Shown: piece by piece, positions 1 to 59,965 of the stretch
Layout of the letters: every line of letters begins with the position of its first letter
Position numbering within the stretch: the first letter of the stretch is position 1
Source of the DNA: an uncultured Solirubrobacterales bacterium
Lineage (GTDB): Bacteria; Actinomycetota; Thermoleophilia; Solirubrobacterales; 70-9
Reading direction: 5' to 3'
DNA length: 64,000 nucleotides
NCBI GenBank assembly: GCA_963816505.1
Contig: CAWFKT010000002.1
Span: forward strand, 448,895 to 512,894
Made by a program: the position numbers and the translations under genes
The notes under the pieces: generated by a model
Databases searched by the model: none
Told to the model about the DNA's origin: nothing
The model's input: the letters and a program-made list of their open reading frames with translations, nothing else

Positions 1-71
1 CCTGGCCCGAGCTCGATCCGCAGCCGGCCCAGGCTCCGCAGCGGCCTCGCTTCGGCGGCGATGACCTGCAC
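1..71 (-). CDS. recF: Possible 5' end of recF (partial, runs off window)
   Basis: Open minus-strand frame from GTG (71..69), 12 nt after the dnaN stop. Translation VQVIAAEARPLRSLGRLRIELGP loosely resembles RecF N-termini, and the position after dnaA-dnaN is canonical. Only 23 codons are visible. Confidence 0.3.
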   Translation of the reverse strand, partial: MQVIAAEARPLRSLGRLRIELGP

Positions 72-83
72 CCCGGGCTCACC

Positions 84-1190
84 TCAGACGTTGAGGCGGA
101 TCGGCATCACGAGATAGCGGAAGTCTTCGTTGTCGACCGGCTGCAGCAGACCCGGGCGCAGCGGCGAGATCAGCCGCAGCACCACCTCGTCGCCCTCGAC
201 GCTTTCGATCCCCTCGCGCAGGAAGTCGGGGTTGAAGCCGATCTCCAGCGGCTCGCCCTCGAAGGCGGCCGGCATCGTCTCCTCGGCGTCGCCGACGTCG
301 GGGGTGGAGGCCGCCACCGTCAACTCCCCCGGCGCGAAGGAGAGGCGCAGCGGCGCGTTGCGCTGGGCGAGCTGGCTGACCCGCCTGACCACGTCGAGGA
401 ACTCGGGGCGCGGCAGGCGCACGTCGTGCTCGTAGGACTCCGGCAGGAGCTGTCGAAAGTTGGGGAACTGGCCGTCAATCAGCCTCGTGTTGAGGACGAT
501 CTCCCCTGCCTTGAAGATGGCCTGGTTGCGCAGCAGCACCACCGAGACGGACTCGACCCCGTCGGCCGAGACGATCCGGCCCAGCTCGCGCAGCGCCTTG
601 GCCGGGATGTTCGCCTCGAGCTCGCCCCCGATCGCGCTCTCCAAATCGGTTCGCTTGACCGCGAGGCGATAGGAATCGGTGGCGACCATCGTCATCTCCG
701 AACCGCTTGCACTGACCAGCACCCCGGTCAGGACGGGGCGCATGTCGTCGCGCGAGGCGGCGCCGGCGACGAGGTCCACGGTCGCGGCGAGCGCCGCCGC
801 CGGGATCGTCAGCGGCTCGCCCTCCTCCTCGGGGAAGGTCGGGAAGTCCTCGCTGGGCAGGACGCGAAGGTGAAAGCTCGAGCCGCCGCTGCGGATCTCG
901 ACGTCGCGCTCCGCTTCGCGCAGCTCGATCTCGACATCCGCGTCGCCCAGCGAGCGCGAGAGCTCGGCGAGAAGGCGACCCGGTAGAAGCACCGAACCGG
1001 GGCCGTCGCTCTCGGCCGCAAGCTTCGTCTTCAGGCCCAGCTCGAGATCGGTGGCGCAGAGGGTGACGCCGTTCTCGTCCGCCGTGAGGAGGATCCCCGA
1101 GAGGGATTGGGTCGCGGCGCGGGTGGATACCGCTCGGGAGACGACCGAGAGCTTGGTGACCAGCTCGTCGCGTTTGGTTGTCAGCTTCAA
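84..1190 (-). CDS. dnaN: DNA polymerase III beta subunit (sliding clamp)
   Basis: ORF 84..1394 trimmed to TTG 1190 (LKLTTKRDELVTKLSVVSRAVS..., a typical clamp N-terminus). 368 aa, ends ...FRYLVMPIRLNV. Directly downstream of dnaA. Confidence 0.92.
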   Translation of the reverse strand: MKLTTKRDELVTKLSVVSRAVSTRAATQSLSGILLTADENGVTLCATDLELGLKTKLAAESDGPGSVLLPGRLLAELSRSLGDADVEIELREAERDVEIRSGGSSFHLRVLPSEDFPTFPEEEGEPLTIPAAALAATVDLVAGAASRDDMRPVLTGVLVSASGSEMTMVATDSYRLAVKRTDLESAIGGELEANIPAKALRELGRIVSADGVESVSVVLLRNQAIFKAGEIVLNTRLIDGQFPNFRQLLPESYEHDVRLPRPEFLDVVRRVSQLAQRNAPLRLSFAPGELTVAASTPDVGDAEETMPAAFEGEPLEIGFNPDFLREGIESVEGDEVVLRLISPLRPGLLQPVDNEDFRYLVMPIRLNV

Positions 1191-1360
1191 GTGGTGATTG
1201 CCTTCTTGAGTTGGATTAGAGCTTGTGGAAAAGCATGGAATCGCCAGCCGCTTCGCTTTGGACGGCGCTTGTCGGGCTGTGGACCGGTCTGTGGGAAAGC
1301 ATGGATTCTTACAGTGCCGTCGGCCGTCAGGCCTGGCCTGTGGGAGCGGTGTGGATTGCG
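1191..1360. promoter_or_regulatory. Probable oriC: cluster of DnaA-box-like 9-mers in the dnaA-dnaN spacer
   Basis: Five same-orientation TGTGGR boxes: TGTGGAAAA 1224, TGTGGACCG 1279, TGTGGGAAA 1290, TGTGGGAGC 1339, TGTGGATTG 1350 (reverse complement of the TTNTCCACA type). Two sit in a 19-nt direct repeat (1224-1242 and 1290-1308, 17/19 identical). The region is locally AT-richer than its surroundings. Confidence 0.6.
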
Positions 1361-2655
1361 GCACGCAGCTCGTTGACCCGAGCGGCAAAGGCATCGTCCT
1401 CGGCGAGGCGGGCTTCGATGCGCCTGATCGAGTTGAGCACCGTGGAATGGTCGCGGCCGCCGAAGAGACGACCGATTTGGGGCAGTGAGAGGTCGGTCAG
1501 CTCGCGGGTGAGGTAGATCGCGACCTGACGAGCACGCAGCGGCGTAGCGGCACGGCTCGATCCGAGCAGCTCGGCGGGGGATACGTCGAAGCTGGCAGAG
1601 ACGCGCTGCTGGATCTGCTCAACCGGCGTTGTCCGTGAGGAGCGCGAAACCCTGGGAATGACCGCCTCGACCAGCTCGGGGCTGAGCGGTTTGGCGGTGA
1701 GCGAGGCGTGAGCGAGGACCCGGGTCAGCCCGCCGTGGAGCTGTCGCATGTTGACGTCGATGCGGCGGGCGAGGACGGCGAGCACGTCGCCTTCGGTGTC
1801 GACCCCGGCCTCGCGCACGAGTCGGCGCAGCACGGTGAGACGGGTCGCCATGTTCGGCGGCTCGACGGGAACGGTCAGTCCCCACTCGAAGCGGTCGCGC
1901 AGGCGCGACTCGAGCGTCGAGAGCTCGCTGGGGATCCGATCGGCGGAGAGGACCAGTTGACTCCCCCCTTCGTAGAGCGCGTTGAAGGTGTGGAAGAACT
2001 CGTCCTCGGTGTGGCGCTTGCCCTCGAGGAACTGCACGTCGTCGACGAGCAGGACGTCAAGATCGCGGTAGCGGCGCTTGAAGCCCTCGACGCCGGTCGT
2101 GCGCAGCGCGGCGACGAACTCGTTGGTGAAGCCCTCGGCGGTGGTGTAGCGGACGTTGAGGCCAGGGGCGTTGACGGCCAGGTAGTTGGCGATCGCGACG
2201 AGCAAGTGGGTCTTGCCCAGTCCCGGCGGGCCGTGCAGGAAGAGCGGGTTGTAGGCCTCCGAAGGCGCCTCGGCGACGGCCAGGGCTGCTGCGTGGGCGC
2301 CGCGGTTGCCCTCGCCGATGACGAAGCGGTCGAAGGTGTAGTTGACGTTGAGGCCTACCTCTGGATCGCAGTCGAGCTGCGGCTTCGAGGCATCACCGAC
2401 GGCGGCGATGCTGACATCGGTCAATCCCGACCCGGCCGCGAGAAGGGCCTCGCGGATCAGCCCGGCGTAGCGGCGCTCGGCCCAGGCGTGAATGCCGGCG
2501 GGCGCCGAGAGGTGGAGGGTGCCGGCCTGGGCGCCGACGACATTCAGCGGCTCGAGCCAGAGCTGGAACGTGGAGGCGGGCAGCGCCGCCCGCAGCCTGT
2601 CTTGGACATCCTGCCAGAGGGAGTCGAGATCGAGTTTCGCAGGGTCATCGGGCAC
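1327..2655 (-). CDS. dnaA: Chromosomal replication initiator DnaA
   Basis: ORF 1327..2922 trimmed to GTG 2655, because the upstream part overlaps divergent rpmH. Walker A GPPGLGKTHLL, Walker B LLVDDVQF, C-terminal DNA-binding region ...GGRDHSTVLNSIRRIE... 442 aa. Confidence 0.93.
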   Translation of the reverse strand: MPDDPAKLDLDSLWQDVQDRLRAALPASTFQLWLEPLNVVGAQAGTLHLSAPAGIHAWAERRYAGLIREALLAAGSGLTDVSIAAVGDASKPQLDCDPEVGLNVNYTFDRFVIGEGNRGAHAAALAVAEAPSEAYNPLFLHGPPGLGKTHLLVAIANYLAVNAPGLNVRYTTAEGFTNEFVAALRTTGVEGFKRRYRDLDVLLVDDVQFLEGKRHTEDEFFHTFNALYEGGSQLVLSADRIPSELSTLESRLRDRFEWGLTVPVEPPNMATRLTVLRRLVREAGVDTEGDVLAVLARRIDVNMRQLHGGLTRVLAHASLTAKPLSPELVEAVIPRVSRSSRTTPVEQIQQRVSASFDVSPAELLGSSRAATPLRARQVAIYLTRELTDLSLPQIGRLFGGRDHSTVLNSIRRIEARLAEDDAFAARVNELRAAIHTAPTGQA

Positions 2656-2759
2656 CGGCGAGCGACCATAGCGACGGTCGGGCGCGGCTGAACCAAGCCC
2701 ACCGCAAATGCCGCAAGAAAGATTCCGAGCGCCTCGGCGCCGAGTCGAGGGCGCGTCCG

Positions 2760-2765
2760 TATACT
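2760..2765 (+). promoter_or_regulatory. Candidate -10 element (TATACT) for rpmH; near-leaderless transcript
   Basis: TATACT lies 10 nt upstream of the rpmH ATG and there is no Shine-Dalgarno in between. Motif only, no -35 assigned. Confidence 0.25.
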
Positions 2766-2775
2766 GCGACGGCCG

Positions 2776-2910
2776 ATGAAGCGGACTTATCAGCCTAAGA
2801 AGCGCAAGCGGGCGAAGACGCACGGGTTTCGGGCGCGGATGAGCACGCGTGGAGGCCGGGCGATCCTCTCTCGCCGACGCCGTAAAGGCCGGAAGCGCCT
2901 CACTCCCTAG
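2776..2910 (+). CDS. rpmH: 50S ribosomal protein L34
   Basis: Hand translation [44 protein letters not shown]. Too short for the ORF track. Divergent from dnaA; its TAG stop abuts the rnpA ATG. Confidence 0.92.
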
Positions 2911-3280
2911 ATGGCGGCGCAACGACGTCGCCGCCTTTCGCGCAGCGGCGAGTTCGACCGCGTCTACCGTGACGGATCCTCACATGCGACCCGCTACCTC
3001 GTCCTCTATAGCTTTCCCCGCAAGACCGAGGAGGCAGACGAGGTGAGGCTTGGTGTGTCGGTGAGTCGCAAGATCGGTGGGGCGGTCGATCGCAACCGCG
3101 TCAAGCGCTCGCTGCGCGAGGCGTTCTGGGCGCTCTCCGGACCGGCTTCCCGCCTCCCACGATTTCGTCCTGGTCGCCCGGACGGAGATCGGCGAGCTGA
3201 TCGAGCGCGAGGGGAGCGCGGGCGTTCGCGCCAGCCTCGAAGAGGCGCTGAGCGCCGCCGGCAAGGGGCGTTCCACGTGA
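2911..3280 (+). CDS. rnpA: RNase P protein component (one apparent frameshift near 3138)
   Basis: N-terminal part in the frame of 2911 (...RLSRSGEFDRVYRDG...VSVSRKIGGAVDRNRVKRSLREAF). The C-terminal part continues in the frame of ORF 3077..3280 (...LPASHDFVLVARTEIGELIE...). Confidence 0.8.
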
Positions 3281-3549
3281 AACGGAGCCTCCTCGCCCTG
3301 GTCGGCGCCTACCAGCGCTGGATCTCGCCCTTGATGCCGCGCCGCTGCCGCTACGAGCCGACCTGTTCCGCCTACGCCGCCGAGTCGGTCCGCCGGTTCG
3401 GCGCTGTGCGCGGAACCCTGCTCGCCACCTGGCGATTGCTTCGCTGCAACCCGTTCAGCCACGGCGGCTTCGACCCCGTTCCCGAGCGCTTCACGCTCAA
3501 GGTCGGCCCCGTCGACCCTGCCGTTCACCACCGCGAGGCCCACTCGTGA
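3277..3549 (+). CDS. yidD: Membrane protein insertion efficiency factor YidD
   Basis: GTG 3277 overlaps the rnpA stop (GTGA). ...YQRWISPLMPRRCRYEPTCSAYAAESVRRFGAVRGTLLATWRLLRCNPFSHGGFDPVP is the YidD signature with conserved Cys residues. Confidence 0.85.
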   Translation: MKRSLLALVGAYQRWISPLMPRRCRYEPTCSAYAAESVRRFGAVRGTLLATWRLLRCNPFSHGGFDPVPERFTLKVGPVDPAVHHREAHS

Positions 3550-4298
3550 TCGTCGACGCCAACATCCTGCAGCCGCTGATCGACATCGTCAACTCGGTCC
3601 TCAAGTTCTTCCACGACAGCGCCGGGCTGAGCTGGGGGATGTCGATCATCGCCCTGACGATTCTTACCCGCGCGATCCTGATCCCGCTCACCTATCGCCA
3701 GCTCAAGGGGATGCGCGCGATGCAGGCGCTGCAGCCGCAGATCAAGGAGATCCAGGCCAAGTTCAAAAACGACAAACAGCGCATGCAGCAGGAGATGATG
3801 CGCTTCTACCAGGAGAACAAAGTCAACCCCTTTGCCTCCTGCATCCCGCTGCTCGCGCAGCTGCCGGTCTTCTTCACGCTCTTCTCGGTTCTCCGCCACG
3901 ACCTGCCCGAAGACATCGGCTGCGAAGCCGGGCATTGCGGCTCCGAAGCTTCCTTCCTCTTCATCCACGACCTGACCGCGAAGGCCCATGGCGCCGAACT
4001 GATCGCCCTGCTGATCCTCTACATCGGCACGCAGCTCGTCTCCGGCCTGGTGATGTCGGTCACGGCCGATAAAAGCCAGCGCACGATGATGATGCTGCTG
4101 CCCTTCATCTTCGTCCCCTTCGTGATCAACTTCCCGGCCGGCCTGATCCTCTACTGGATCACGACAAACTTCTGGACGATCGGACAGCAGTACGCGATCC
4201 AGCGCATCATCCCGGCGCCGCAGGTGGCCACACCGGCCGAGGCAATGGCGCTGAAGGCGCCGCCTCCGCCTCCCAAAAAGAAGAAGAAGCGGCGCTAG
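3546..4298 (+). CDS. yidC: YidC/Oxa1-family membrane protein insertase (short Gram-positive type)
   Basis: GTG 3546 overlaps the yidD stop. ...LIPLTYRQLKGMRAMQALQPQIKEIQAKFKND...RFYQENKVNPFASCIPLLAQLPVFF...; basic C-tail PPPPPKKKKKRR. Confidence 0.92.
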   Translation: MIVDANILQPLIDIVNSVLKFFHDSAGLSWGMSIIALTILTRAILIPLTYRQLKGMRAMQALQPQIKEIQAKFKNDKQRMQQEMMRFYQENKVNPFASCIPLLAQLPVFFTLFSVLRHDLPEDIGCEAGHCGSEASFLFIHDLTAKAHGAELIALLILYIGTQLVSGLVMSVTADKSQRTMMMLLPFIFVPFVINFPAGLILYWITTNFWTIGQQYAIQRIIPAPQVATPAEAMALKAPPPPPKKKKKRR

Positions 4299-4300
4299 GT

Positions 4301-4415
4301 GGAAGGGCCGGGCACCCCTTCCGGCTCAACTTTTTGGATGTGGGGTGGAGTTGCTGGCGCCGCAAGGTTGGCGCCCAAAAAGTACAAGCCGCCGGAAGGG
4401 GTGCCCGGCCCTTCC
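4301..4415 (+). repeat. Palindromic element A (core-bearing family, forward orientation)
   Basis: Arms GGAAGGGCCGGGCACCCCTTCCGGC (4301-4325) and its exact reverse complement (4391-4415), 25/25 bp. Interior is TCAACTTTTTGGATG...GCCCAAAAAGTACAAGCC. Confidence 0.9.
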
Positions 4416-4446
4416 CCATGATCCGTAGCTGGAATAGGGTGCAGGT

Positions 4447-4930
4447 GTGAGCGGAGATACCGATTGGCCGGAGCAGCCTGCAGAGCGGGTTCGGGAGATC
4501 GTTGAGGGGGTCCTCGACGAGCTCGATCTGGAGGGCGAGGTCGAGATCGCCGAGGACGACGACCGGATCACCGCCTCGATCGACGGCGACGAGGACTACG
4601 GGCTGCTGATCGGCAAGCGGGGGCAGACGATCGACGCCCTGCAGCTGCTCGCCTACCAGGCCGCTTTCCGAGGGGTGCGCGAGCGCAAGCGGGTCGTGGT
4701 CGACGCCGCCGGCTATCGCGAGCGCCGTCGGGAGACGCTTGACGGCGCGGGCCGACCGGGCCGCGGAGCAGGCGCTGGACGACAGCGGCGCGGTCGAGAT
4801 GGACTCGATGAGCGCCCAGGAGCGGCGGGTCGTGCACGAGCACCTCAAGGAGCGGGCCGGGGTCGAGACTTACAGCGAAGGGGACGAGCCGCATCGGTGC
4901 GTGGTCGTTGCTCCTTTGGTTTCGGAGTGA
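4447..4930 (+). CDS. jag: Jag/KhpB-type RNA-binding protein (KH + R3H; one apparent frameshift near 4741)
   Basis: KH part in the frame of 4447 (...DYGLLIGKRGQTIDALQLLAYQ...). R3H part in the frame of ORF 4739..4930 (...MSAQERRVVHEHLKERAGVETYSEGDEPHRCVVVAP). Conserved position after yidC. Confidence 0.82.
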
Positions 4931-5044
4931 GGGAGCGCCCCGGTGGGGGTTCCGCTTAACTTTTTCGAGTCGCGCCCCGGCTGCTGACCATGGCCGGCGG
5001 CGAAAAAGTACAAGACGCTCCACCCCCACCGGGGCGCTCCCTCA
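4928..5044 (+). repeat. Palindromic element B (core-bearing family, forward orientation)
   Basis: Arms TGAGGGAGCGCCCCGGTGGGGGT (4928-4950) and the exact reverse complement (5022-5044), 23/23 bp. Interior is ...CTTAACTTTTTCGAG...CTGCTGAC...CGAAAAAGTACAAGACG... The left arm begins with the jag stop TGA. Confidence 0.9.
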
Positions 5045-5700
5045 GTGAGGCGCAGAGGGCGACGATCTCGGTGGTCTTGGAGCTTTTGGCGACCGAGCGG
5101 GCGTCGGTTAGCTCTGTTACCGATCCGGCGCGGGCTTGGCGGGTGCACGTTGCGGACAGTCTCACCGGGCTCGAGTTCGACAAGCTGCGCACCGCGCGCC
5201 GAATCGCGGATATTGGCTCTGGGGCTGGCTTTCCCGGACTTGTCCTCGCGGTTGCCCTGCCCGAGTCAAAGGTAGACTTGATCGAGTCGGTTGGCCGCAA
5301 GTGCGAGTTCATCGAGCGTGCGATCGAGGCGGCGGGCATCGCCAACGCGAACGTCATCAACGCTCGCTCCGAGGAGCTAGCCGAAGGAGACGGCCGCGAG
5401 GCCTACGCAGCCGTCACCGCCCGCGCGGTGGGCCGCCTCTCAACCCTCGCCGAGCTGGCCTCGCCCCTACTCGAAGAAAACGGCGTCCTCGTCGCCTGGA
5501 AGGGCAAGCGCGACCCCGACGAGGAGGCCCAGCTGGTCAACGCCGCGGAGAAGCTTGCGATGCGGCCGGAACAGCTCCTCCACGTCGGTCCTTACGCCGG
5601 CAGCGAGCACCGTCACCTTCACCTGCTCCGCAAGATAGGCCCCACCCCCACGAAGCTGCCGCGCCGTCCGGGCATGGCCAAGAAGCGCCCTTACGGGTGA
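4990..5700 (+). CDS. rsmG: 16S rRNA (guanine527-N7)-methyltransferase RsmG/GidB
   Basis: SAM-binding region ...RIADIGSGAGFPGLVLAVALPESKVDLIESVGRKCEFIERA... Conserved position between jag and parA. ATG 4990 lies inside repeat B; the alternative start is GTG 5071. Confidence 0.88.
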   Translation: MAGGEKVQDAPPPPGRSLSEAQRATISVVLELLATERASVSSVTDPARAWRVHVADSLTGLEFDKLRTARRIADIGSGAGFPGLVLAVALPESKVDLIESVGRKCEFIERAIEAAGIANANVINARSEELAEGDGREAYAAVTARAVGRLSTLAELASPLLEENGVLVAWKGKRDPDEEAQLVNAAEKLAMRPEQLLHVGPYAGSEHRHLHLLRKIGPTPTKLPRRPGMAKKRPYG

Positions 5701-5824
5701 GGTGCGGGGGCCGGTCCGGTGGAGCCTCGCGAAGCGGCCCCCGGCAAGGTGATCATGAGCCGCGAAGCGGCTCCAATTTGGTGAGCGAAGCGAACATAGG
5801 CTCCACCGGACCGGCCCCCGCACC
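5701..5824. repeat. Palindromic element C (different interior)
   Basis: Arms GGTGCGGGGGCCGGTCCGGTGGAGCC (5701-5726) and the exact reverse complement (5799-5824), 26/26 bp. The interior carries the direct repeat CGCGAAGCGGC at 5728 and 5761 and a central TGATCA. Confidence 0.9.
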
Positions 5825-5848
5825 CCCACAGAAATAGTCTGCCCAGCC

Positions 5849-6607
5849 ATGGGCGTCGTCTACGCGATCTCAAACCAGAAGGGCGGCGTCGGCAAGACGA
5901 CGACCGCGGTCAACGTTGCCGCCTGTCTGGCCGCCTCGGGCGCCCAGACCCTGCTCGTCGACCTCGACCCCCAGTGCAACGCCACCGTCGCCCTCGGCGG
6001 CGAGCGCGACATGCACCCCTCTTCCTACGACTGCCTGACCGGTGACGTCTCGGTCGCCGAGGCGGCCCGGCCGGCCGGGCCCGACAACCTCTGGCTGGTC
6101 CCGGCCAACCGCGATCTGGCCGGCGCCGCGGTCGAGCTGCCGCGGATCGAGGGCTCCGAGACCCGCTTGCGCGAGCGCCTCGGCCCGGTGCGCGAGCGCT
6201 TCGCCTACACCCTGCTCGACTGCCCGCCCTCGCTGGGCCCGGTCAGCGTTAACGCCCTGACCGCCGCCGACCGCGTGATCGTCCCGGTGCAGGCCGAGTA
6301 CCTGGCGCTGGAGGGCCTGGTCCAGTTCCTCGACACGCTGGCGACGATTCGCCGTGAGCTCAACCCGGCGCTGAAGGTGTCGGGCCTGCTGGTCACCATG
6401 CACGACGAGCGCACCCGCTTGGCGCAGGACGTCGAGCGGGAACTACGCCAGCATTTCCCCGAAATGGTCTTCGAGACGGTCATACCGCGCAGCGTCAGGG
6501 TCGCCGAGGCGCCGAGCTATGGCCTGCCCGTGACCGAGCACTCTCCTACCTCGCGCGGCTCGGTCGCCTACCGCAGCCTCGCCAAGGAGCTGGCGGAACG
6601 TGGCTAG
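5849..6607 (+). CDS. parA: Chromosome partitioning ATPase ParA/Soj
   Basis: Deviant Walker A in MGVVYAISNQKGGVGKTTTAVN... 252 aa. Overlaps the parB start by 8 nt. Confidence 0.92.
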   Translation: MGVVYAISNQKGGVGKTTTAVNVAACLAASGAQTLLVDLDPQCNATVALGGERDMHPSSYDCLTGDVSVAEAARPAGPDNLWLVPANRDLAGAAVELPRIEGSETRLRERLGPVRERFAYTLLDCPPSLGPVSVNALTAADRVIVPVQAEYLALEGLVQFLDTLATIRRELNPALKVSGLLVTMHDERTRLAQDVERELRQHFPEMVFETVIPRSVRVAEAPSYGLPVTEHSPTSRGSVAYRSLAKELAERG

Positions 6608-7468
6608 CGCGACCAAGCGTGGGCTCGGCAGCGGCCTGGCGGCGATCCTGCCGGAGGCCGTCGGCGAGGATGCGGGCGAGCTGCGCGAGTTGCCGATCGA
6701 GCTGATCAAGCCGAATCCGAACCAGCCGCGGACCAAGATCGACCCGGAGGCGCTGGCCGGGCTCGCCTCCTCGATCGAGACCAACGGCGTCGTCCAGCCG
6801 CTGCTCGTCCGCCCCCTGCCCGACGGCAGCTACGAGCTGATCGCCGGCGAACGTCGCTGGCGCGCCGCTCAGACGGCCGGACTGGAGAAGGTCCCGGCGG
6901 TCGTCCGCGATCAGGAGCTGGCCGAGCGCCTGCAGGTGGCGCTGATCGAGAACATGGTCCGCGAGGACCTCAACCCGTCGACGAGGCGCGCGCCTGCGCC
7001 GCCCTGGTCGACGAGCTCGGACTGTCCAAGGAGGAGCTGGCTCGCCGCGTCGGCCGCAGCCGTCCCGCCGTCTCCAACCTGATCCGCCTGCTCGACCTCC
7101 CCGACGAGACGCTCGAGCTGCTCGAGTCCGGCAAGCTCAGCGAGGGCCACGGCAAGGCCCTCCTCGGCGCCGAAGGAAACGACGTGCGCCGCCGCCTCGC
7201 CCGCGACGCTGCGCGGGCGGGCTGGTCGGTCCGCGAGACCGAGAACAGGGTTAAGCTGGCCGGCCAGCCAAAAAAGGGGGTGGCCCGGCGACAACCGGCG
7301 CCGGAGGAGGCCGCGGCAATGCGCGAGGTGGCCGACGAGCTCGAGGCCGCCCTCGGCCACGAGGTGACGGTGCGGCCGAGAGGAGGGGAGATCGCCGTCG
7401 AGATCCGCTTCGACGACCTCGACCAAGCGCTCGACCTCGCCCGCGCTGTCAAGCGCGCCGGCCGCTGA
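6600..7468 (+). CDS. parB: Chromosome partitioning protein ParB/Spo0J (one apparent frameshift near 6977)
   Basis: ParB N-terminal boxes ...IELIKPNPNQPRTKIDPEAL...VVQPLLVRP...YELIAGERRWRAA... The HTH and C-terminal half (...LSKEELARRVGRSRPAVSNLIRLLDLP...) continue in another frame to the stop at 7468. Confidence 0.85.
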
Positions 7469-10587: not shown

Positions 10588-11022
10588 GTGGGATCTTTCT
10601 CCGGAATCTGCCTCGAGCTCGGCGTCGGCATCGCGATCGGGATGCTCGCCGGCACCACCGGCACGCACGGCTCCGCCCGCGGGCGGATGACGATCCTGGC
10701 CGGAGTGATCGCCCTCGTGATCGGCTTTCTGCTTTCCGGCAGCGCCGAAGTGAGCAGCCTGGCGGGCGCCTTCTTCTGCCTCGTCGGCGCGGTGTTCGCC
10801 TGCCTGGTCGTCAGCGACGTGGTCAGCGGCGCCGGCCGGCGCGAGGGCGGCGGCAGCGGCGCCCTGGGCTTCCTCGTCTCGGTAGCGGCTCTAATCGTCC
10901 TAGCGATCGCAATTCTGATCTCACCAGCCATCCTGCTGATCATCGCCGCCTTGGTCTGGCTCGGTATCTCACGCCGGCGACGCGCCCAGCGTAAACACGC
11001 TGGACTGCGCGTACTGCGCTAA
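10588..11022 (+). CDS. Small integral membrane protein, unassigned
   Basis: 144 aa with about four hydrophobic helices (e.g. ILAGVIALVIGFLL, FFCLVGAVFACLVV, VAALIVLAIAILISPAILLIIAALVWLGI). No family recognised. Confidence 0.55.
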   Translation: MGSFSGICLELGVGIAIGMLAGTTGTHGSARGRMTILAGVIALVIGFLLSGSAEVSSLAGAFFCLVGAVFACLVVSDVVSGAGRREGGGSGALGFLVSVAALIVLAIAILISPAILLIIAALVWLGISRRRRAQRKHAGLRVLR

Positions 11023-11135
11023 GGCCTTCCCCGGTAGGGGTGGAACGTCTTGTACTTTTCCGGCAGCCGCTCGCGGCGTCAGCAGACGCGTCCACACCGG
11101 AAAAGTTAAGTGGAACCCCTACCGGGGAAGGCCTT
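11021..11135 (-). repeat. Palindromic element D (core-bearing family, reverse orientation)
   Basis: Arms AAGGCCTTCCCCGGTAGGGGT (11021-11041) and the exact reverse complement (11115-11135), 21/21 bp. Interior is CTTGTACTTTTCCGG...GTCAGCAG...CCGGAAAAGTTAAG, the reverse complement of the B-type core. Confidence 0.9.
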
Positions 11136-12685: not shown

Positions 12686-14358
12686 TGCGGAAGAGCGCCC
12701 TGTGCCTCCTGCTCTTTGTGGCGCTCCTCTTGCCCGCAACCGCATCGGCCGAGGTCGGCGCATCGCAAGCGACCCGCATCGCCGCGCATGACCCGAATGC
12801 AATCAAGGAGCGCGAAGAGAACACGGTGCTCACCCACAGCGCCAGCAAGGTCGAAGGCAGCTGGGATGTCGCCTACTTCGCCGACGAAAAAGAGGTCGCG
12901 CTGGTCATCGTCGACCCGAAGACCGGCCGCGTGCGCGAGTCGTGGACCGGCTATCAGGTCGCCTGGAAAATGGCCCGCGGCTACTCCGGCGCCTTCGGCC
13001 ACAAGCTCAACGCCCCCTACGTCTTCCTGCCGCTCTGCGCGATCTTCCTGCTCGGGCTGGTCGACTGGCGGCGGTTGAGGCGCATCGCCAACCTCGACCT
13101 CGTCTTCCTGCTCGGCTTCGGCGTCTCCAACTTCTTCTTCAACCGGGCCGAAATCGGCGTCTCGGTCCCGCTCCAGTACATCCCGCTCGTCTACCTCTTC
13201 GGCCGGGCGCTGTGGATCGGCCTGCGTGGCCGGGGGGAGGGGATCAAGCCCGCCTGGCCGGCAGCCTGGCTGCTCGTCGCCGCGCTCTTCCTGATCGGCT
13301 TCAGGGTCGGGCTCAACATGGCCGACTCGGGCGCGATCGACGTCGGCTACGCCGGCGTGGTCGGCGCCGATCGGATCTCCCACGGCGAACCGATCTACGG
13401 CAACTTCCCCAAAGACGTCTCCCAGGGAGACACCTACGGCCCGGTCAACTACTTCGCCTACGTCCCCTTCGAGCGGATCTGGCCCTGGTCGGGAACCTGG
13501 AACGACCTCCCCGCAGCCCACGGCGCGGCGGTCTTCTTCGACCTAGCCACCTTCGCCCTCCTGATCCTCCTGGGCCGCCGAATCCGCCCCGGCCCCGAGG
13601 GCAACAAACTCGCAGCGACCCTGGCCTTCGGCTGGGCGGCATACCCCTACACGGCCTACGCCCTCCTATCGAACTCCAACGACACCCTGGTGGCGATGCT
13701 GCTGGTGGCAACACTGTTGGCACTGGCGCGCCCTGCTGCTCGAGGTGTCATGGCGGCACTTGCGACGCTGGCAAAGTTCGCACCGGCGGTGTTGGTCCCG
13801 ATGCTCGCGACGTATCGGCCCGCGGGTCCTGTCGCCGCAGGGGACCCACCACCCCTTCCGGTCGCTAAAGCGTCCTCAGGGGAGGTCCCCCCTGCGACGC
13901 CACCCGCGGGAGTGAAGTTTGCGATTGCTTTCGCACTCACAGCGCTTGCCCTGCTGCTGTGGCCCGCGATAGATCCCGGCCTGCACACGTTCTACGACCG
14001 GACGATTGCCTATCAAGCCGGCCGAAATTCACCATTCAGCATCTGGGGGCAGGTAGCTTGGCTGGAACCCGCACGCATCGCGATCCTCGCAGCAGTCGCC
14101 GCCCTCGCCCTGCTCTTTGCTTTCCGCCCCAAGGAGAAGAAGCTCACGCAAGTAGCAGCGCTGGGTGCGTCTCTCCTAATCGGCCTGCAGCTAACGATGC
14201 ACCACTGGTTCTACCTCTACATAGTCTGGTTCTACCCACTACTCCTCATAGCCCTGGTGTCCCTGGAAAGGAAGTCGGATACCCCTCCGAACGGCTTGTA
14301 CTTTTTCGGCGATACAAACTCGGCCAGCCGATCACTCTCCACCGAAAAAGTTGAGTGA
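12685..14358 (+). CDS. Polytopic GT-C-like membrane glycosyltransferase (DUF2029/GT87-like) with N-terminal extracytoplasmic domain
   Basis: Signal peptide, about 90 aa soluble domain, then at least 10 hydrophobic helices. Loop ...DVGYAGVVGADRISHGEPIYG...DTYGPVNYFAYVP... The ATG overlaps the upstream stop (TGATG). The last ~29 codons lie inside repeat E. Confidence 0.55.
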   Translation: MRKSALCLLLFVALLLPATASAEVGASQATRIAAHDPNAIKEREENTVLTHSASKVEGSWDVAYFADEKEVALVIVDPKTGRVRESWTGYQVAWKMARGYSGAFGHKLNAPYVFLPLCAIFLLGLVDWRRLRRIANLDLVFLLGFGVSNFFFNRAEIGVSVPLQYIPLVYLFGRALWIGLRGRGEGIKPAWPAAWLLVAALFLIGFRVGLNMADSGAIDVGYAGVVGADRISHGEPIYGNFPKDVSQGDTYGPVNYFAYVPFERIWPWSGTWNDLPAAHGAAVFFDLATFALLILLGRRIRPGPEGNKLAATLAFGWAAYPYTAYALLSNSNDTLVAMLLVATLLALARPAARGVMAALATLAKFAPAVLVPMLATYRPAGPVAAGDPPPLPVAKASSGEVPPATPPAGVKFAIAFALTALALLLWPAIDPGLHTFYDRTIAYQAGRNSPFSIWGQVAWLEPARIAILAAVAALALLFAFRPKEKKLTQVAALGASLLIGLQLTMHHWFYLYIVWFYPLLLIALVSLERKSDTPPNGLYFFGDTNSASRSLSTEKVE

Positions 14359-14377
14359 GGAGGGGTATCCGACTTCC
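14270..14377 (-). repeat. Palindromic element E (core-bearing family, reverse orientation)
   Basis: Arms GGAAGTCGGATACCCCTCC (14270-14288) and the exact reverse complement (14359-14377), 19/19 bp. Interior is CTTGTACTTTTTCGG...CCGAAAAAGTTGAGTG. Confidence 0.9.
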
Positions 14378-18047: not shown

Positions 18048-18122
18048 GGGACGCGGGTGCCCCTACCCCGGACGCACGGCTTCGCCGTGCTTGAGTGTCC
18101 GGGGTAGGGGCACCCGCGTCCC
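18048..18122. repeat. Palindromic element F (short, core-less relative)
   Basis: Arms GGGACGCGGGTGCCCCTACCCCGGAC (18048-18073) and the exact reverse complement (18097-18122), 26/26 bp. The 23-nt loop GCACGGCTTCGCCGTGCTTGAGT is itself a small hairpin. Confidence 0.9.
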
Positions 18123-42504: not shown

Positions 42505-42617
42505 CGCCCCGGATTCTTTCGGCCGACTTTGCAGGGAGGCCGGCTGTGGGAGCGCTCGGCCTCTGATTTGCTGGAGCCTCGGAGCGGTTCCGCCGCCTCC
42601 GGCCCTTAACTAAGTCG

Positions 42618-44041
42618 ATGGCTTCCGCTCCCACAGCCCACGTCCCGCCGCAGAACATCGAGGCGGAGGAATCGGTGCTTGGGGCGATGCTGGTCGCCGA
42701 GCCGACGCTGACCCGGGTGATCGACGAGGTGAAGCTGAACGCGGGCGACTTCTACCTCGACAAGCACGCGGCGATCTTCACCGCGATCCACGACCTCTAC
42801 GCGGCCTCCAAGCCGGTCGACGAGCTCAGCGTCAGCGAGTCGCTGACCCAGCGCAACCAGATCGAGGAGGCGGGGGGCAAGCACTACGTCTCCGAGCTGG
42901 CGGCGAAGGTGCCGGCCGCCGGCAACGCCAAGCACTACGCCGAGATCGTCCAGCAGAACTCCCTCCTGCGCCGCCTGCTCGGCGCCGGCCAGGAGATCCA
43001 GGGCTGGGTCCACGAGCGCGACGGCGAACCGCGCGAGCTCTCCGAGCGGGCCGAGAAGCTGCTCTTCGACGTCGCCCACAAAGAGCAGGCCAGTGACTTC
43101 CGTCTGCTCTCGGAGATCCTCCACGACGAGGTCGATCGCCTCGAGAAGCTCTCCACCGGCGAGCTCGAGCTGACCGGCACCCCGTCGGGCTTCCGCGACA
43201 TCGACGCGATCACCGGGGGGTTTCAGCCGGGGAATCTGATTATCGTCGCTGCAAGGCCTGCAATGGGCAAGTCAGCGATCGTCGCCAACATCGCCGAAAA
43301 CGTGGCGGTGAAGCGGAACATGCCGGTCGCTTTCTTCTCGCTCGAGATGTCCGAGGTGGAGCTGGCGCAGCGCTTCATCGCCTGCCGGGCGCGGATCTCG
43401 GGCGACAAGCTGCGCAAGGGGCAGGTTGCCTCTAAAGACTGGCCGAAGGTGGTGCGAGCCTGCAACGAGCTGGAGGAGGCGCCGCTCTGGTTCGACGACT
43501 CCTCCGACCTCGGCGTGCTCGATTTGCGGGCGAAGGCGCGGCGGCTGCACGCGCAGGAGCAGGACCGCGGCGGGCTGGGCCTGATCATCGTCGACTACCT
43601 ACAGCTGATGCGCTCCGACGATCCTCGCGCGAACAGGGTCGAGCAGGTCGGGCAGATGAGCCGCGGCCTGAAGATCCTCGCCCGCGAGCTGGAGGTGCCC
43701 GTGCTGGCGATCTCCCAGCTCTCGCGCGCACCCGAGCAGCGCCATCCGCCGAAGCCGATGCTCTCCGACCTTCGCGAATCGGGAAATCTTGAGCAGGATG
43801 CGGATCTTGTCGCATTCCTCTTCCGCGAGGACTACTATCGCGACCCCGACGACGAGCCGGACGGGCTTGCCGACCTGATCATCGCCAAGCACAGGAACGG
43901 GCCGATCGGCACGCCGAAGCTGGTCTTCCTCGACCGCTTCCCCAAGTTCGCCGACTTCGCCGGCCAGGAGCAGCCGATCGAGCAGCCCGCCGGCGAAGGG
44001 CCGCCGCTCGAGGACCCCGCTTCGGTGGGGCCTGAGTTCTG

Positions 44042-48603: not shown

Positions 48604-48634
48604 AAGAAAGGGCGGCCATCGGCCGCCCTTTCTT
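48604..48634. terminator. Bidirectional intrinsic terminator between convergent genes
   Basis: Stem AAGAAAGGGCGGCC / GGCCGCCCTTTCTT (14 bp) with a 3-nt loop. T-rich run follows on the plus strand (CTTTCTTTGT) and TTTT follows on the minus strand. Confidence 0.7.
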
Positions 48635-51223: not shown

Positions 51224-51257
51224 AGACGGCGAGGGACTATAGCGGCAGGGGGCGGCG

Positions 51258-51357
51258 GTCGGGTACCCCTTCCCGCTCAACTTTTTGGATGGGTGCGTAT
51301 GGCGACGCCTCAAGGTGGACGCCCAAAAAGTACAAGCCGCGGGAAGGGGTACCCGAC
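51258..51357 (+). repeat. Palindromic element G (core-bearing family, forward orientation)
   Basis: Arms GTCGGGTACCCCTTCCCGC (51258-51276) and the exact reverse complement (51339-51357), 19/19 bp. The interior TCAACTTTTTGGATG...GCCCAAAAAGTACAAGCC is nearly identical to element A. Confidence 0.9.
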
Positions 51358-51438
51358 AGCTCGCTCTCAGTGGGGCGCGAACACCGCTGATCCGTCTTCG
51401 GGAGCGGCCGGCGCGGAGACGACCGGTGGGGGAGCTTC

Positions 51439-58847: not shown

Positions 58848-59927
58848 GTGGAGCGCAGCGAGCCACTTCTACACCGCATCGGCGAGGCCGGGGCGAAATT
58901 CGGCACCAAGCCGCCGCGCAGCAAACGCGTCCGGCTGGCGATCCAGCTCGGCATCGCGATCCTCGTCTTCGGCTTCCTCGTCCTCACCGTCGTCAACCAG
59001 TGGGCCGAGATCAAGGACAAGGGCGTCCACTTCCACGTCCTCTGGCTGATCCCGGCCTTCGTCGTCCTGCCGATCTTCTACGCGCTCAACGCGGTCGGCT
59101 GGGACCTGATCCTGCGCTTCCTCGGCTACCGGCTCGGGGCAGGGCGGGCGCAGGTCGCCTGGGGCCAGCCGCTGCTGGCCCGCTACGTGCCCGGCAGCGT
59201 TCTCTACGTCCTCGGTCGGGTCCTGCTCTCCGAGCGGGTGGGGGTGCCGCGGCGCTTGACGATTGCCAGCATCGTCTACGAACAGGCGCTGCAGGCGACC
59301 TCGGCGGTCATCGTCGCCGCCTACTTCCTGATCGACCACCCCGACCTGCAGGGCCAGTCGTGGCGCTGGGGGGTGCTGGTGCTGATCCCGCTGGCGATCG
59401 CGCTGCTGCACCCGCGCGTCTTTGGCCCGCTCGCAAACCGGGTGCTGCGGGCGTTCGGCAGGGAGCCGCTGCCGGAGGTGATCTCGCTGCGCGGGGTCTT
59501 CGCCGTGCTCGCTTTCTACACGCTCAACTGGGGCGTCGCCGCGGTCGGCATCTGGTGCGTGGCGCGCTCGGTCAGCTCGATCGCGCCGAGCGACATGCTC
59601 GCCGCCGGCGCCGCCCAGGCCTTCGGCTACGTGGCGGCGCTGGTCACCCTCGTCGCCCCCGCCGGCCTCGGTGTCCGCGACGCGGCGTTTGCCTGGGCCT
59701 TCAAGTCGGTGGCGCCGGGCAACAGCTTCGCGGTCGCCTCGCTGGTGGCGATCGTCGTGCGGGGGGTGCTTACGCTGGTCGAACTGATCTATGTCGCGAT
59801 CGTTACGGCTATGGGGCGGCGGGAGGGGTGGTCCATTCATACGGGGGTAATTCACCCGTCGCCCGAGGAGGAACGGGCCGAGGAGGGGGAGTCCCCCGCC
59901 CGAACTCGCGGGCTTCGCCCGCTCTGA
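58848..59927 (+). CDS. Flippase-like / LPG-synthase-TM (UPF0104-like) membrane protein
   Basis: 359 aa with about 8 TM helices. ...AVGWDLILRFLGYRL...LLARYVPGSVLYVLGRV... pattern. The last ~18 codons lie inside repeat H. Confidence 0.5.
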   Translation: MERSEPLLHRIGEAGAKFGTKPPRSKRVRLAIQLGIAILVFGFLVLTVVNQWAEIKDKGVHFHVLWLIPAFVVLPIFYALNAVGWDLILRFLGYRLGAGRAQVAWGQPLLARYVPGSVLYVLGRVLLSERVGVPRRLTIASIVYEQALQATSAVIVAAYFLIDHPDLQGQSWRWGVLVLIPLAIALLHPRVFGPLANRVLRAFGREPLPEVISLRGVFAVLAFYTLNWGVAAVGIWCVARSVSSIAPSDMLAAGAAQAFGYVAALVTLVAPAGLGVRDAAFAWAFKSVAPGNSFAVASLVAIVVRGVLTLVELIYVAIVTAMGRREGWSIHTGVIHPSPEEERAEEGESPARTRGLRPL

Positions 59928-59965
59928 GTATCCGCCCGTTCGGGGGACTCCCCCTCCTCGGCCCG
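59874..59965. repeat. Palindromic element H (core-less relative)
   Basis: Arms CGGGCCGAGGAGGGGGAGTCCCCCG (59874-59898) and the exact reverse complement (59941-59965), 25/25 bp. The interior contains GCTCTGAGTATCC, similar to the loop of F. Confidence 0.9.

Follow-up and report, generated by a model that had tools for sequence, protein, structure and literature searches.

The three hairpins that occupy the gaps of the yidC-jag-rsmG-parA string in this Solirubrobacterales DNA are best explained, with a probability of roughly 0.6, as independent copies of palindromic, non-autonomous mobile DNA of the MITE or REPIN kind that resides at Solirubrobacterales gene ends and whose two arms would correct one another. 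The element families to which they belong are previously undescribed. Their members are found in multiple copies scattered through the genomes, orthologous sites may have or lack one, a single site carries different families in different lineages, and remnants occur.

The hairpins, here called A, B, and C, had been picked out by a sequence-only reading as perfect palindromes, and all three turned out to be real: between positions 4000 and 6100 of the window (the whole 64,000-nucleotide stretch that was analysed) there are exactly three inverted repeats with 100% arm complementarity. A has perfect 25-nt arms (4301-4325/4391-4415) around a centre of 65 nt and begins 2 nt 3' of the yidC stop codon (TAG, 4296-4298), B has perfect 23-nt arms (4928-4950/5022-5044), and the perfect arms of C measure 27 nt (5701-5727/5798-5824) rather than 26 as first read. 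C directly abuts the rsmG stop codon (TGA, 5698-5700), and its centre contains GCGAAGC three times (at 5729, at 5762, and within GAGCGAAGCGAAC). Pfam matches back the gene string (YidC, Jag/KhpB with KH and R3H domains, GidB/RsmG, and ParA), and dnaA and dnaN lie upstream. The expectation that these genes are normally tightly packed held up, as in element-free relatives jag and rsmG overlap in GTGA and the rsmG-parA gap spans only 14-25 nt. Three elements in a row are nevertheless just mildly unusual for this genome, because about 20% of the gaps in the window are occupied by such an element, and the term intergenic does not wholly fit B, which includes both the jag stop codon and, at its centre, the likely rsmG start codon. 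The features are listed in Table 1.

Table 1. Positions of palindromic elements, promoter-like boxes, and codons within the window.
Feature	Position	Strand	Description
Element A	4301..4415	+	F1 subtype b, GCTCAACTTTTT...AAAAAGTACAAGCCG
-10-like box TAGGGT	4435..4440	+	7 nt upstream of the GTG (4447) that starts jag; likely drives a leaderless jag mRNA
Element B	4928..5044	+	F1 main subtype, TCCGCTTAACTTTTT...AAAAAGTACAAGACGCTCC
jag (KhpB) stop TGA	4928..4930	+	first 3 bases of the B left arm; R3H-domain frame ends ...APLVSE*
ATG in the B centre	4990..4992	+	in frame with rsmG; likely rsmG start
Element C	5701..5824	+	family F3
-10-like box TAGTCT	5835..5840	+	8 nt before the parA ATG (5849); likely promoter of a leaderless parA mRNA
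F1 copy	11021..11135	-	main subtype, opposite orientation; 21-bp perfect arms
F1 copy	14270..14377	-	subtype b, opposite orientation; 19-bp perfect arms; between convergent genes
Short palindromic element	18048..18122	.	26-bp perfect arms; 23-nt centre GCACGGCTTCGCCGTGCTTGAGT
Long imperfect palindrome	42534..42646	.	outside the named families; 21-nt arms, 86% complementary; intergenic gap
F1 copy	51255..51360	+	subtype b; 22-nt arms at 95% (19 perfect); divergent gap upstream of rpsF
F5 palindromic element	59874..59965	.	25-bp perfect arms; centre ...GCGGGCTTCGCCCGCTCTGAGTATCCGCCCGTT

Five families of non-coding elements, F1 to F5, were distinguished, with sizes of 75-145 bp. F1, which is defined by the core AACTTTTT...AAAAAGTACAAG and includes A and B, has five copies in the window, and the AAAAGTACAAG core occurs five times where 0.07 occurrences are expected. 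The copy at 11021..11135 adjoins the stop codon of its upstream gene (10588-11022). F5 also fills the yidC-jag gap of three related loci (L165, L141, and L144), and the centre of the short element at 18048..18122 resembles a truncated F5 centre. There are about 11 intergenic palindromes in the window, or roughly one per 6 kb. When arms of at least 13 nt and loops of up to about 190 nt were counted, the whole window yielded 15 perfect inverted repeats, compared to 0, 1, and 0 in three shuffles. The notion that GC-rich sequence or long-read errors gave rise to spurious palindromes is effectively refuted: indel errors are indeed present in the assembly, where jag and rpsF are frameshifted, but the shuffles fall far short of the observed count and the same families recur at orthologous positions in dozens of independent assemblies, short-read ones included.

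Beyond the window, the two-part F1 pattern matched at least 120 stretches in the genome collection. Matches with more than 60% G+C numbered 89 (87 of them usable) and were all in Solirubrobacterales, Thermoleophilia or Actinomycetota MAGs, with at least 87 F1 copies in Solirubrobacterales/Thermoleophilia assemblies; complete MAG chromosomes such as OY970376.1, OY970392.1, OY969417.1, and OY970165.1 are among the carriers. The core consensus is kept across many genomes and contains an asymmetric internal loop (TYA opposite ACAAGMC). A stop codon lies within 2 nt of an arm end in about 40 of 74 classified F1 copies, and the gene contexts were convergent in 32, tandem in 35, and divergent in 7 cases; in tandem contexts, 22 copies had the same orientation and 13 the opposite one.

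Comparing 80 related yidC-jag-rsmG-parA regions, I found the same gaps empty, filled with other families, or holding remnants, which indicates that the elements come and go. At the jag-rsmG junction, 46 of 81 loci were empty and 35 carried F1, namely the window and 34 related genomes with elements akin to B. The rsmG-parA gap was short in 35 of 55 loci and held F3, F4, F1 or F2 in the other 20, while the yidC-jag gap ranged from 2 to 440 nt and contained none to two elements of several families. Different F1 centre subfamilies share one site in different lineages. In L104, a syntenic MAG locus, each of the three gaps contains a palindrome, and the families in the first and third differ from those in the window; hairpins consisting of arms only were found in L150 and L158. 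An RsmG neighbour-joining tree showed occupied and empty states interleaved; a count of gains and losses was dropped due to weak resolution and a few misaligned rows, so that interleaving is all that can be claimed. The sequence-only reading had set a dispersed repeat against a lineage-specific UTR structure, and the further genomic copies together with the empty sites in relatives, whose gaps do not just repeat the sequence seen here, rule out a UTR structure specific to this locus.

An alternative prompted by the arms-only hairpins was set aside, since in the rsmG-parA gap the net gain in length corresponds to the entire element including its outer arms and G-rich arms of a similar kind occur in several families and at many sites. 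At the jag-rsmG site the net gain amounts to about 92 nt rather than about 115, and the empty 26-nt spacer (..GACCCCACCGCTGCGCTC..) resembles the F1 right arm. This likeness is not general, as the rsmG-parA gap contradicts it, and it may be a coincidence.

Element B would have separated the jag stop from the rsmG start with which it overlapped (GTGA) and would now provide the start codon and about 18 N-terminal codons of rsmG, with the element encoding the segment MAGGEKVQDAPPPPGRSL. Conservation of frame and start makes the central ATG the likely start codon in use: the GidB domain begins at residue 36 of the reading frame that it opens, and an in-frame rsmG start lies inside the element in 35 of 35 occupied loci.

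The arms of the elements stay paired as their sequence changes. Among 70 non-orthologous F1 copies, the 20-bp stem was 95.5% paired, and 19 of its 20 pairs had changes on both sides. Doubly changed cells numbered 480, compared to 144 ± 11 in shuffles, of which none out of 500 reached 480; the covariation was also scored with an alignment-free version. Slid-arm controls were 40-55% paired, and F1 pairing ended sharply at position 20-21. One-sided changes were nearly absent, with 40 double and no single changes at columns 10/117. The cells that departed from Watson-Crick pairing comprised about 16-24 G.T, about 27 C.A, and about 26-36 of the transversion type, and the arm mismatches showed no wobble (G.U) excess on either strand. 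Strand-specific RNA selection in the form of a G.U versus A.C asymmetry likewise found no support, with the exception of one C.A that recurs at arm position 7, probably through inheritance.

The 35 orthologous jag-rsmG copies allowed a comparison with the drift of the adjacent gene. Differences in the outer arms amounted to 0.46-0.55, compared to 0.34-0.49 at third codon positions of rsmG and 0.14-0.29 in the inner arm and core. The outermost 8 bp of each arm differed between orthologs about as much as silent positions, yet were about 95% Watson-Crick paired; all 20 pairs were intact in 21 of the 35 copies, and 6 had one mismatch. Compensated transversions and compensated length changes were seen between close relatives. 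At one orthologous site with related arms, the L151 centre matches those of L158, L171, and L175 in reverse complement (78-83% identity), which speaks for exchange between the arms. The F4 elements of L151 and L170 have centres that are the same but for 1 of 51 nt. Outer arms that drift as if neutral while keeping their pairing, without G.U tolerance, point to copying of one arm from the other at the DNA level rather than to selection on an RNA fold, which is the less likely reason for the kept arms.

The claim that each element would form a very stable hairpin was confirmed by prediction. RNA folds of A, B, and C reached -79.3, -81.8, and -90.9 kcal/mol, far below shuffled controls (z of -7.0, -8.8, and -9.5), the minus-strand RNAs folded with equal strength, and the DNA folds came to -47.5, -49.2, and -53.2 kcal/mol. 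Such stability would suit hairpins selected by the host as RNA structures that end or process transcripts (U-tract-less terminators, RNase III sites or 3' stabilisers), with the repeats serving as raw material. The placement of the elements is in keeping with this: they are found at the 3' ends of genes, with enrichment in convergent contexts and depletion in divergent gaps, and A and C each fit exactly into the space from the upstream stop codon to the conserved -10-like box of the next gene. The cores are conserved in place, the stem of about 20-21 bp corresponds to about two turns of dsRNA, and gaps refilled by different families across lineages could mean that some hairpin is wanted there. 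I nonetheless consider this explanation unlikely. The mismatches lack G.U tolerance and strand asymmetry, both orientations occur and the centre is inverted at one site, and in over half of the relatives the gaps are empty and the genes tightly packed. Moreover, the outer arms change at or above the silent rate, faster than compensatory mutation could follow if selection acted alone.

The terminator and promoter predictions also bear on a role in transcription. None of A, B, and C has the shape of a U-tract terminator, as no T-run follows the right arms, and a terminator scan of the elements returned just two weak sub-hairpins before an internal ACTTTTT run (2 versus 1.1 in shuffles); canonical terminators or sigma-70 promoters within the elements were not supported by the scan. 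The genome does use canonical terminators elsewhere, as illustrated by a bidirectional one (A-tract/hairpin/T-tract) at 48604-48634. The -10-like box upstream of jag reads TAGGGT, TAGACT or TAGGCT in relatives, and that of parA is kept in nearly all 55 relatives with a readable gap, a few of which have TAATCT or TAACCT. With conserved boxes of their own at jag and parA, the genes probably do not form one long polycistron, and B, which lies within the jag-rsmG unit and holds the rsmG start, would be an odd place for a terminator. A search of the whole window against Rfam 15 at gathering scores found only two tRNAs and no match at the elements, and sub-threshold matches at a permissive E-value across 4200-5900 were to generic long hairpins (miRNA precursors) and nothing relevant. 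The earlier reading is partly supported: its check for a dispersed repeat came out positive and the hairpins are as stable as it claimed, while the segmenting, stabilising or attenuating of a polycistronic mRNA is a putative role, and several results lean against it as the reason for which the structures are kept.

A further explanation is that a folded-ssDNA enzyme (an HUH/Y1 RAYT-like protein or an attC-type recombinase) moves intact hairpins only, in which case hot spots would be re-invaded, and perfect arms would reflect recent birth and selection for mobility without any correction in place. The F3 centres hold GCGAAGC, which is known as a very stable DNA mini-hairpin. The core consensus is conserved across many genomes, and the same site is held by different families and F1 centre subfamilies. 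In addition, a sequence-free conserved stem beside a sequence-conserved core with an asymmetric loop is the pattern of hairpins read by ssDNA enzymes, with parallels in the determinants of REP recognition by TnpA_REP (PMC8266576) and in the compensatory changes of REPINs (PMC3116915). I regard this explanation as quite improbable, given that the arms at the jag-rsmG site follow host kinship: the window, L126, and L121 have most of the arm in common, as do L146, L150, L137, and L104. Arms of such kin differ by single compensated changes, which indicates inheritance in place and not replacement. Within a genome no two copies share arms, the GTAG guide motif is not conserved (column 17), and no HUH or recombinase gene was found nearby, neither among the scanned window proteins nor in an IS-sized unit bounded by these arms in 1.02 Mb of related DNA.

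The scanned window proteins (about 20 of roughly 55 genes) included no transposase, recombinase or integrase, and 1.02 Mb of related DNA contained no IS-sized unit or long-range inverted repeat with these arms. The only transposase found beside F1 copies, an IS1595-type gene between two of them in L032, was rejected as a parent because it has its own unrelated 24-nt ends (TGGAGCTAAGCGGGTACGCACTAG). In the 64 kb and about 1 Mb of fragments drawn from many genomes, neither the scanned window proteins nor the stretches separating inverted F1 pairs yielded a tnpA_REP/RAYT gene. No target-site duplication of the TA, TNA, YTAR or CTNAG type was consistent, whether in the flanks of 87 copies or in comparisons of filled with empty sites; the flanking triplets are stop codons and their complements, which extend the palindrome and form no direct repeat. 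Outer arms were shared by none of roughly 35 same-genome F1 pairs, and there is thus no sign of recent transposition.

Among known systems, the elements resemble REPINs and BIMEs in being intergenic hairpin doublets of about 100 bp, mostly outside genes and at 3' ends, with compensatory changes. REPINs and BIMEs of Pseudomonas, E. coli, and Stenotrophomonas reach hundreds of copies and are mobilised by RAYT/TnpA_REP, proposed to act as folded ssDNA, and I know of no REPs in the host actinobacterial order. The order of conserved and variable parts differs, however: in the elements the outer 8 bp vary while the inner arm and the centre flanks are conserved. In a REPIN, two inverted REPs, whose ends are invariant and whose spacer is less conserved, form one long hairpin maintained by compensatory changes (PMC3116915), and a REP is defined by a palindrome of 20-50 nt preceded by a conserved tetranucleotide, usually GTAG (PMC8266576). 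Here, GTAG lies inside the F1 stem (GGTAGGGG) in only about half of the main-subtype copies (at column 17, 33 of 70 have T and the rest C, G or A), is missing from the A and C arms, and is not followed by a separate local palindrome.

The elements are like MITEs in their size (100-150 bp), in having terminal inverted repeats and a predicted long hairpin, and in their dispersed intergenic copies with presence/absence polymorphism at orthologous sites. Bacterial examples are Correia/NEMIS in Neisseria, ERIC/IRU in enterobacteria, RUP and BOX in Streptococcus, and SMAG in Stenotrophomonas, and MITEs at times give promoters, terminators or coding sequence to neighbouring genes, as element B appears to do. 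In contrast to MITE terminal repeats, which are read by a transposase, conserved between copies, and decay independently in each copy, the arms seen here are copy-specific and perfectly matched, and neither a target-site duplication nor a parent IS was detected. Integron attC sites are likewise palindromes (imperfect, 57-141 bp) of copy-variable sequence right after stop codons, and their recombinase reads a folded single strand with unpaired bases. However, the neighbours of the elements are core housekeeping genes without cassettes or array logic, their stems are perfect where the outer attC stem has extrahelical bases, and their ends are G-rich/C-rich (GGAAGGG.../...CCCTTCC and similar) with no RYYYAAC/GTTRRRY core sites. 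Concerted arms that differ between lineages around a centre found in both orientations recall the palindromes of the human Y chromosome, with their arm-to-arm gene conversion, and plastid inverted repeats, with their flip-flopping single-copy region; there the arms are kilobases long as opposed to 20-29 bp here, and I know of no earlier record of arm homogenisation at this scale.

Taken as mobile palindromes with self-correcting arms, the elements would work as follows. Each family core, kept across genomes, is presumably recognised by a protein and is flanked by a stem of 20-29 bp, the outer part of which would accept any sequence provided that the arms match. A mutation in one arm would be removed or copied to its partner via arm-to-arm recombination or gene conversion, or the mismatch may be repaired in an extruded hairpin or cruciform, and this mutual correction at the DNA level is the most likely reason for the perfect pairing. 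The elements would settle where they are tolerated, in the few bases between a stop codon and the signals of the next gene, and a putative 3'-end hairpin effect on the yidC, jag, and rsmG transcripts is possible as a by-product. Cores that are more conserved in place than silent sites are unlike a dead selfish element and agree with either a function for the host or homogenisation that is still going on. Part of the arm pattern could also arise from repeated re-insertion at hot spots. A bolder version, which is tentative and on balance doubtful, would make self-correcting palindromes, with arms continually re-templated by hairpin repair or centre-flipping recombination, a new class of mobile DNA that is recognised by its structure, inserts at the first bases behind stop codons, and can be taken over by the host as the start of a gene.

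Small palindromic repeats such as REPs, REPINs, and MITEs are known mainly from Proteobacteria and Firmicutes, and the searchable literature on Solirubrobacterales/Thermoleophilia, an abundant but poorly studied soil lineage, yielded none of this kind. The elements fill roughly one in five gaps and probably affect assembly and binning, and since stop and start codons lie inside them, they distort gene calls. A repeat element that probably supplies the start codon and N-terminus of a universal housekeeping gene is documented here with rsmG. The combination of a conserved core with arms that drift neutrally yet stay paired makes it testable whether palindromes persist by selection on the fold or by copying, and the jag-rsmG series of 35 genomes offers a ready natural experiment. 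If the self-correcting reading is true, the elements would offer a natural way of following, in vivo, how hairpins or cruciforms extrude and how mismatches are corrected in a phylum that to my knowledge lacks MutS/MutL.

Exactly three inverted repeats with perfectly complementary arms (100%) were found at 4000-6100, one each in the yidC-jag, jag-rsmG and rsmG-parA gaps (elements A, B and C, see table). The palindromes described in the sequence-only reading are thus all present and perfect, apart from the arms of C being 27 nt, one longer than it had given. Its gene string was matched by Pfam domains, namely dnaN and dnaA on the minus strand, followed by YidC, Jag/KhpB (KH and R3H), RsmG/GidB, ParA, and ParB. 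Across the whole window, 15 inverted repeats are perfect over arms of 13 nt or more, vs 0, 1, and 0 in three shuffles, and palindromic structures are therefore far beyond chance. The predicted folds of A, B, and C are as good on the minus strand as on the plus strand. Long intergenic palindromes number about 11 in the window (~1 per 6 kb), and since ~1 gap in 5 carries one, three in a row, previously called unexpected, is only mildly surprising for this genome. The label intergenic does not quite suit B, which overlaps coding ends: the TGA stop of the jag R3H-domain frame (4928-4930) is the first triplet of its left arm, and the rsmG frame opens within it.

Palindromic elements and associated sequence features in the window
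Feature	Position	Arms	RNA MFE (kcal/mol)	z	DNA MFE (kcal/mol)	Remark
Element A	4301-4325/4391-4415	25 nt	-79.3	-7.0	-47.5	100% complementary
Element B	4928-4950/5022-5044	23 nt	-81.8	-8.8	-49.2	100% complementary
Element C	5701-5727/5798-5824	27 nt	-90.9	-9.5	-53.2	100% complementary
Further F1-core elements	11021-11135; 14270-14377; 51255-51360					core motif in either orientation
GCGAAGC in C	5729-5735; 5762-5768; 5786-5792
-10-like hexamer, jag	4435-4440					TAGGGT; also TAGACT in relatives
-10-like hexamer, parA	5835-5840					TAGTCT; also TAGGCT in relatives

A, B, and three further window elements share the core motif TYAACTTTTTSS - ~40 nt - SSAAAAAGTACAAG, an 11-mer of which occurs 5 times in the window vs 0.07 expected, and were grouped as repeat family F1. 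A pattern fitting all five copies matched at least 120 stretches in a 185,579-species genome collection; among the matches listed, the 89 with G+C >60% (87 usable) were all in MAGs labelled Solirubrobacterales, Thermoleophilia, or Actinomycetota, and the rest were chance matches in AT-rich genomes. The outermost layer of F1 is a 20-21 bp stem. Its outer 8 bp are copy-specific, and its inner 12 bp fit a loose consensus, which is TCCCGGYAGGGGT for the main subtype, that of B, and GGGCACCCCTYCC for the subtype of A. Next, going inwards, come a small internal loop (TCCRCTT opposite ACGYTCC) whose R-Y pair covaries perfectly (GC 39, AU 31, unpaired 0), a loop that is asymmetric (TYA facing ACAAGMC), an invariant helix (ACTTTTT/AAAAAGT), and a centre of ~40 nt, of which there are three subfamilies or more.

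The F1 core is missing from C, which was assigned to a second family, F3, whose centres contain two or three copies of GCGAAGC, a motif that forms an exceptionally stable DNA mini-hairpin. F3 copies bearing it also occur in related loci from MAGs and metagenomes (L124, L132, L151, L158, and others). F2 arms end in TCCCTGGAG and F4 arms in GGGTGTCCCTCG; F4 centres contain a 28-nt perfect palindrome, AAACGGCGGTCTAATTAGACCGCCGTTT, whose sequence resembles the kind of site that dimeric proteins bind. F5 comprises the window element at 59874 and probably that at 18048, and the centres of both carry an extended GCGAAGC form, GGCGAAGCC, on the minus strand. All five families have a common general build; no Rfam family matched the elements, and the searchable literature held nothing on such repeats in the Solirubrobacterales/Thermoleophilia lineage. 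A 30-nt imperfect palindrome at 60383-60447 (87% complementary, 5-nt loop) lies outside these families and apparently within a coding region.

The sequence-only reading implied repeat elements, to be judged by further genomic copies and by the same gaps in relatives. The MAG locus L104 (MFD05442.bin.2.195), syntenic with window 10-6563 at ~78% DNA identity, holds one perfect palindrome in each gap. The one between jag and rsmG alone is F1, as B is; the outer two gaps hold two F2 copies that face opposite ways. Scanning metagenomes with RsmG added 80 further yidC-jag-rsmG-parA regions (71-88% protein identity). The jag-rsmG gap was empty or short (8-45 nt) at 46 of 81 readable loci and occupied at 35, in every case by F1 in the same orientation, 0-6 nt past the jag stop, and with three different centre subfamilies. 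Its commonest empty state is 26 nt, with the jag TGA and the rsmG GTG start overlapping as GTGA. Among 55 readable rsmG-parA gaps, 35 were empty or short (14-64 nt) and 20 held F3, F4, reversed F1, or F2, most beginning 0-3 nt past the rsmG stop, while the yidC-jag gap (45 readable) held 0-2 elements of several families, 17 loci being without a palindrome (gap 2-130 nt) and 28 having at least one (gap 115-440 nt). Occupied and empty states are interleaved on the weakly resolved RsmG tree. The sites are dynamic, which bears out the repeat hypothesis; such turnover is typical of DNA that moves, or that is at least unstable, and not of a conserved regulatory structure.

In L150, L121, L122, L162, and L166, the short rsmG-parA gap retains an arms-only hairpin or a remnant with an internal deletion. 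The arms-only forms, which also occur in the jag-rsmG gap of L158 and include GGTGGGGATCGGGTgtcACCCGATCCCCACC and a 12+12 palindrome, TTGCTGAGTGAG/CTCACTCAGCAA, look like elements minus their centre, or precursors. The 26-nt spacer of empty jag-rsmG sites, e.g. in L167 (TGAgcgccGACCCCACCGctgCGCTCgac), encodes the ancestral RsmG N-terminus and resembles the F1 right arm (ACCCCCACCGgggCGCTC; window 5015-5044), and the net length gain on occupation is ~92 nt, not ~115; coincidence, homology-guided targeting, or host sequence re-used as an arm could account for this.

Across 70 non-orthologous F1 copies the 20-bp stem was 95.5% paired, with two-sided changes at 19 of the 20 pairs. All four Watson-Crick types were common at variable positions (at one of them AU 27, GC 19, CG 11, UA 10, unpaired 3), and doubly changed cells numbered 480, whereas column shuffling gave 144 +/- 11 and never as many as 480 in 500 rounds. 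With the partner shifted by 1-3 columns pairing fell to 40-55%, pairing stopped sharply after position 20-21 (54% at the three flanking positions), and an alignment-free fixed-register count agreed. Non-Watson-Crick cells were of similar frequencies (G.T about 16-24, C.A about 27, transversion-type about 26-36), and the one-sided changes expected as G.U intermediates of a selected RNA helix were almost absent, so neither strand resembles a selected RNA. These patterns indicate that complementarity is enforced at the DNA level.

The orthologous jag-rsmG copies have 20/20 perfect arms in 21 of 35 genomes and a single mismatch in 6. Between-genome divergence at this site is 0.46-0.55 for the outer arm (positions 13-20) and 0.14-0.29 for the inner arm and core, vs 0.34-0.49 for rsmG third codon positions. 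Arm sequences follow host relatedness and change one compensated step at a time, with transversions and length changes among the compensated steps, e.g. GGGAGCG in the window, GCGAGCG in L126, and GAGAGCG in L121 (one mismatch still uncompensated), or AGGCCC/GGGCCT in L146 vs AGGGCC/GGCCCT in L150. As the stem is near-neutral in rate yet almost never mismatched, waiting for specific second mutations is a poor account; the pattern is the one expected if either arm soon serves as template to mend a mismatch in the other. L151 has an F3-type centre in its yidC-jag gap that is the reverse complement of its counterparts there in L158, L171, and L175 (78-83% identity, vs 51-58% in direct orientation), and the arms are related. 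This is consistent with physical exchange between arms, though re-insertion in the opposite orientation might also have produced it. The 51-nt F4 centres of L151 and L170 in the rsmG-parA gap differ at 1 base and their outer arms differ, although genome pairs in this set diverge by ~40% on average at rsmG third codon positions; either extreme conservation or recent exchange would fit.

Cores are conserved across genomes, even in place, so something reads them, which could be an enzyme moving them or a host factor. This conservation is the main reason to retain two other explanations. An RNA function as the reason for the structures is unlikely, the mismatch spectrum being unlike selected RNA on either strand; mobility selected on structure, with turnover, is likewise a distinctly doubtful account.

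Gene context was assessed for 74 non-orthologous F1 copies on a simple GC3-based gene map: 32 were convergent, 35 tandem, and 7 divergent. In about 40 of the 74, a stop codon lies within 2 nt of the 20-bp arm end, and in many convergent pairs stop codons abut both ends. Smaller classes 16 and 29 nt inside F1 are in-frame TAG (in GGTAGGGG) and TAA (in CTTAAC); because the terminal class is ~8x commoner than either, genes do not simply read into the element at random, and very short ancestral spacers explain part of the adjacency, not all. With respect to the gene upstream, one orientation is only slightly favoured (22 to 13), and no direct target duplication was found in the copies and filled-vs-empty sites compared.

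In each of the 35 genomes occupied at the jag-rsmG site I found the rsmG frame open across the right half of the element, with an in-frame start inside. In 24 of them this start is ATG, placed 14 nt ahead of AAAAGTACAAG, and in the others it is GTG, through an A-to-G change in the motif or within the centre. The encoded peptide, M-A-x-x-E-K-V-Q-D-A-P-P-P-P-G..., joins RsmG at the conserved ...L-S/D-E-A-Q-R. Given the conserved frame and start, the element has split the ancestral GTGA overlap and probably now supplies the start codon in use and ~18 codons.

TANNNT-type -10-like hexamers lie 7-8 nt before the jag and parA starts in the window and nearly all relatives (L121-L200), with no Shine-Dalgarno sequence at these starts, as in leaderless promoters of actinobacteria. 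Jag and parA thus probably have their own promoters and form separate transcription units, which would place A and C between units and B inside the jag-rsmG unit. The stems are not followed by a U-tract. The genome also uses ordinary terminators, as shown by a bidirectional intrinsic one of canonical form between convergent genes (48604-48634; A-tract, 14-bp GC-rich stem, 3-nt loop, T-tract). The proposed transcript-segmenting role is not favoured as the cause of persistence.

The window also contains frame breaks. Jag changes frame at 4738-4759 (KH part in frame 1, R3H part in frame 2), with a KH-R3H spacing of 22 nt vs 21 nt in all relatives, and rpsF (50747-51240, minus strand) is split over two frames; on these grounds both are probably single-base indel errors typical of long-read MAGs, not real pseudogenes. 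In the ORF after parA (6600-7082, 160 aa) the N-terminal domain of ParB is the sole match; what remains of parB may lie in another frame (a possible indel) or be missing.

No transposase partner was found among the window proteins scanned, and no IS-sized unit bounded by these arms in 1.02 Mb of related DNA. An IS1595-type transposase between two inverted F1 copies in L032 was rejected as a partner, since the 24-nt ends that bound it are unrelated to those of F1, which leaves it a mere neighbour. This IS (L032 1382-2577; Zn-ribbon and DDE_Tnp_IS1595, 309 aa) has a back-to-back IR-IR junction (1548-1599) abutting one end and a further solo end (1382-1418), an example of end-only palindromes arising from an IS. 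REPs are defined by a short palindrome that a conserved GTAG precedes and by a tnpA_REP gene next to them (PMC8266576). The first feature does not apply here, a GTAG-like sequence being found inside the stem in only about half of main-subtype F1 copies, and no tnpA_REP gene turned up among the window proteins scanned or the related DNA covered. REPINs combine compensatory changes with invariant ends and a variable spacer (PMC3116915); the elements share the compensatory changes, whereas their layout is the reverse.

On the best-supported reading, A, B, and C arose as separate copies of palindromic repeats that are non-autonomous, belonging to several related undescribed families at Solirubrobacterales gene ends, with perfect arms kept by arm-to-arm copying at the DNA level. 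The palindromes are real and REPIN/MITE-like, and are unusual in their copy-specific, probably mutually correcting arms, their placement flush to stop codons, and the start codon probably donated to rsmG. Proof that arms of only 20-29 bp correct each other, or of a new recombinase that reads structure, would raise their interest.
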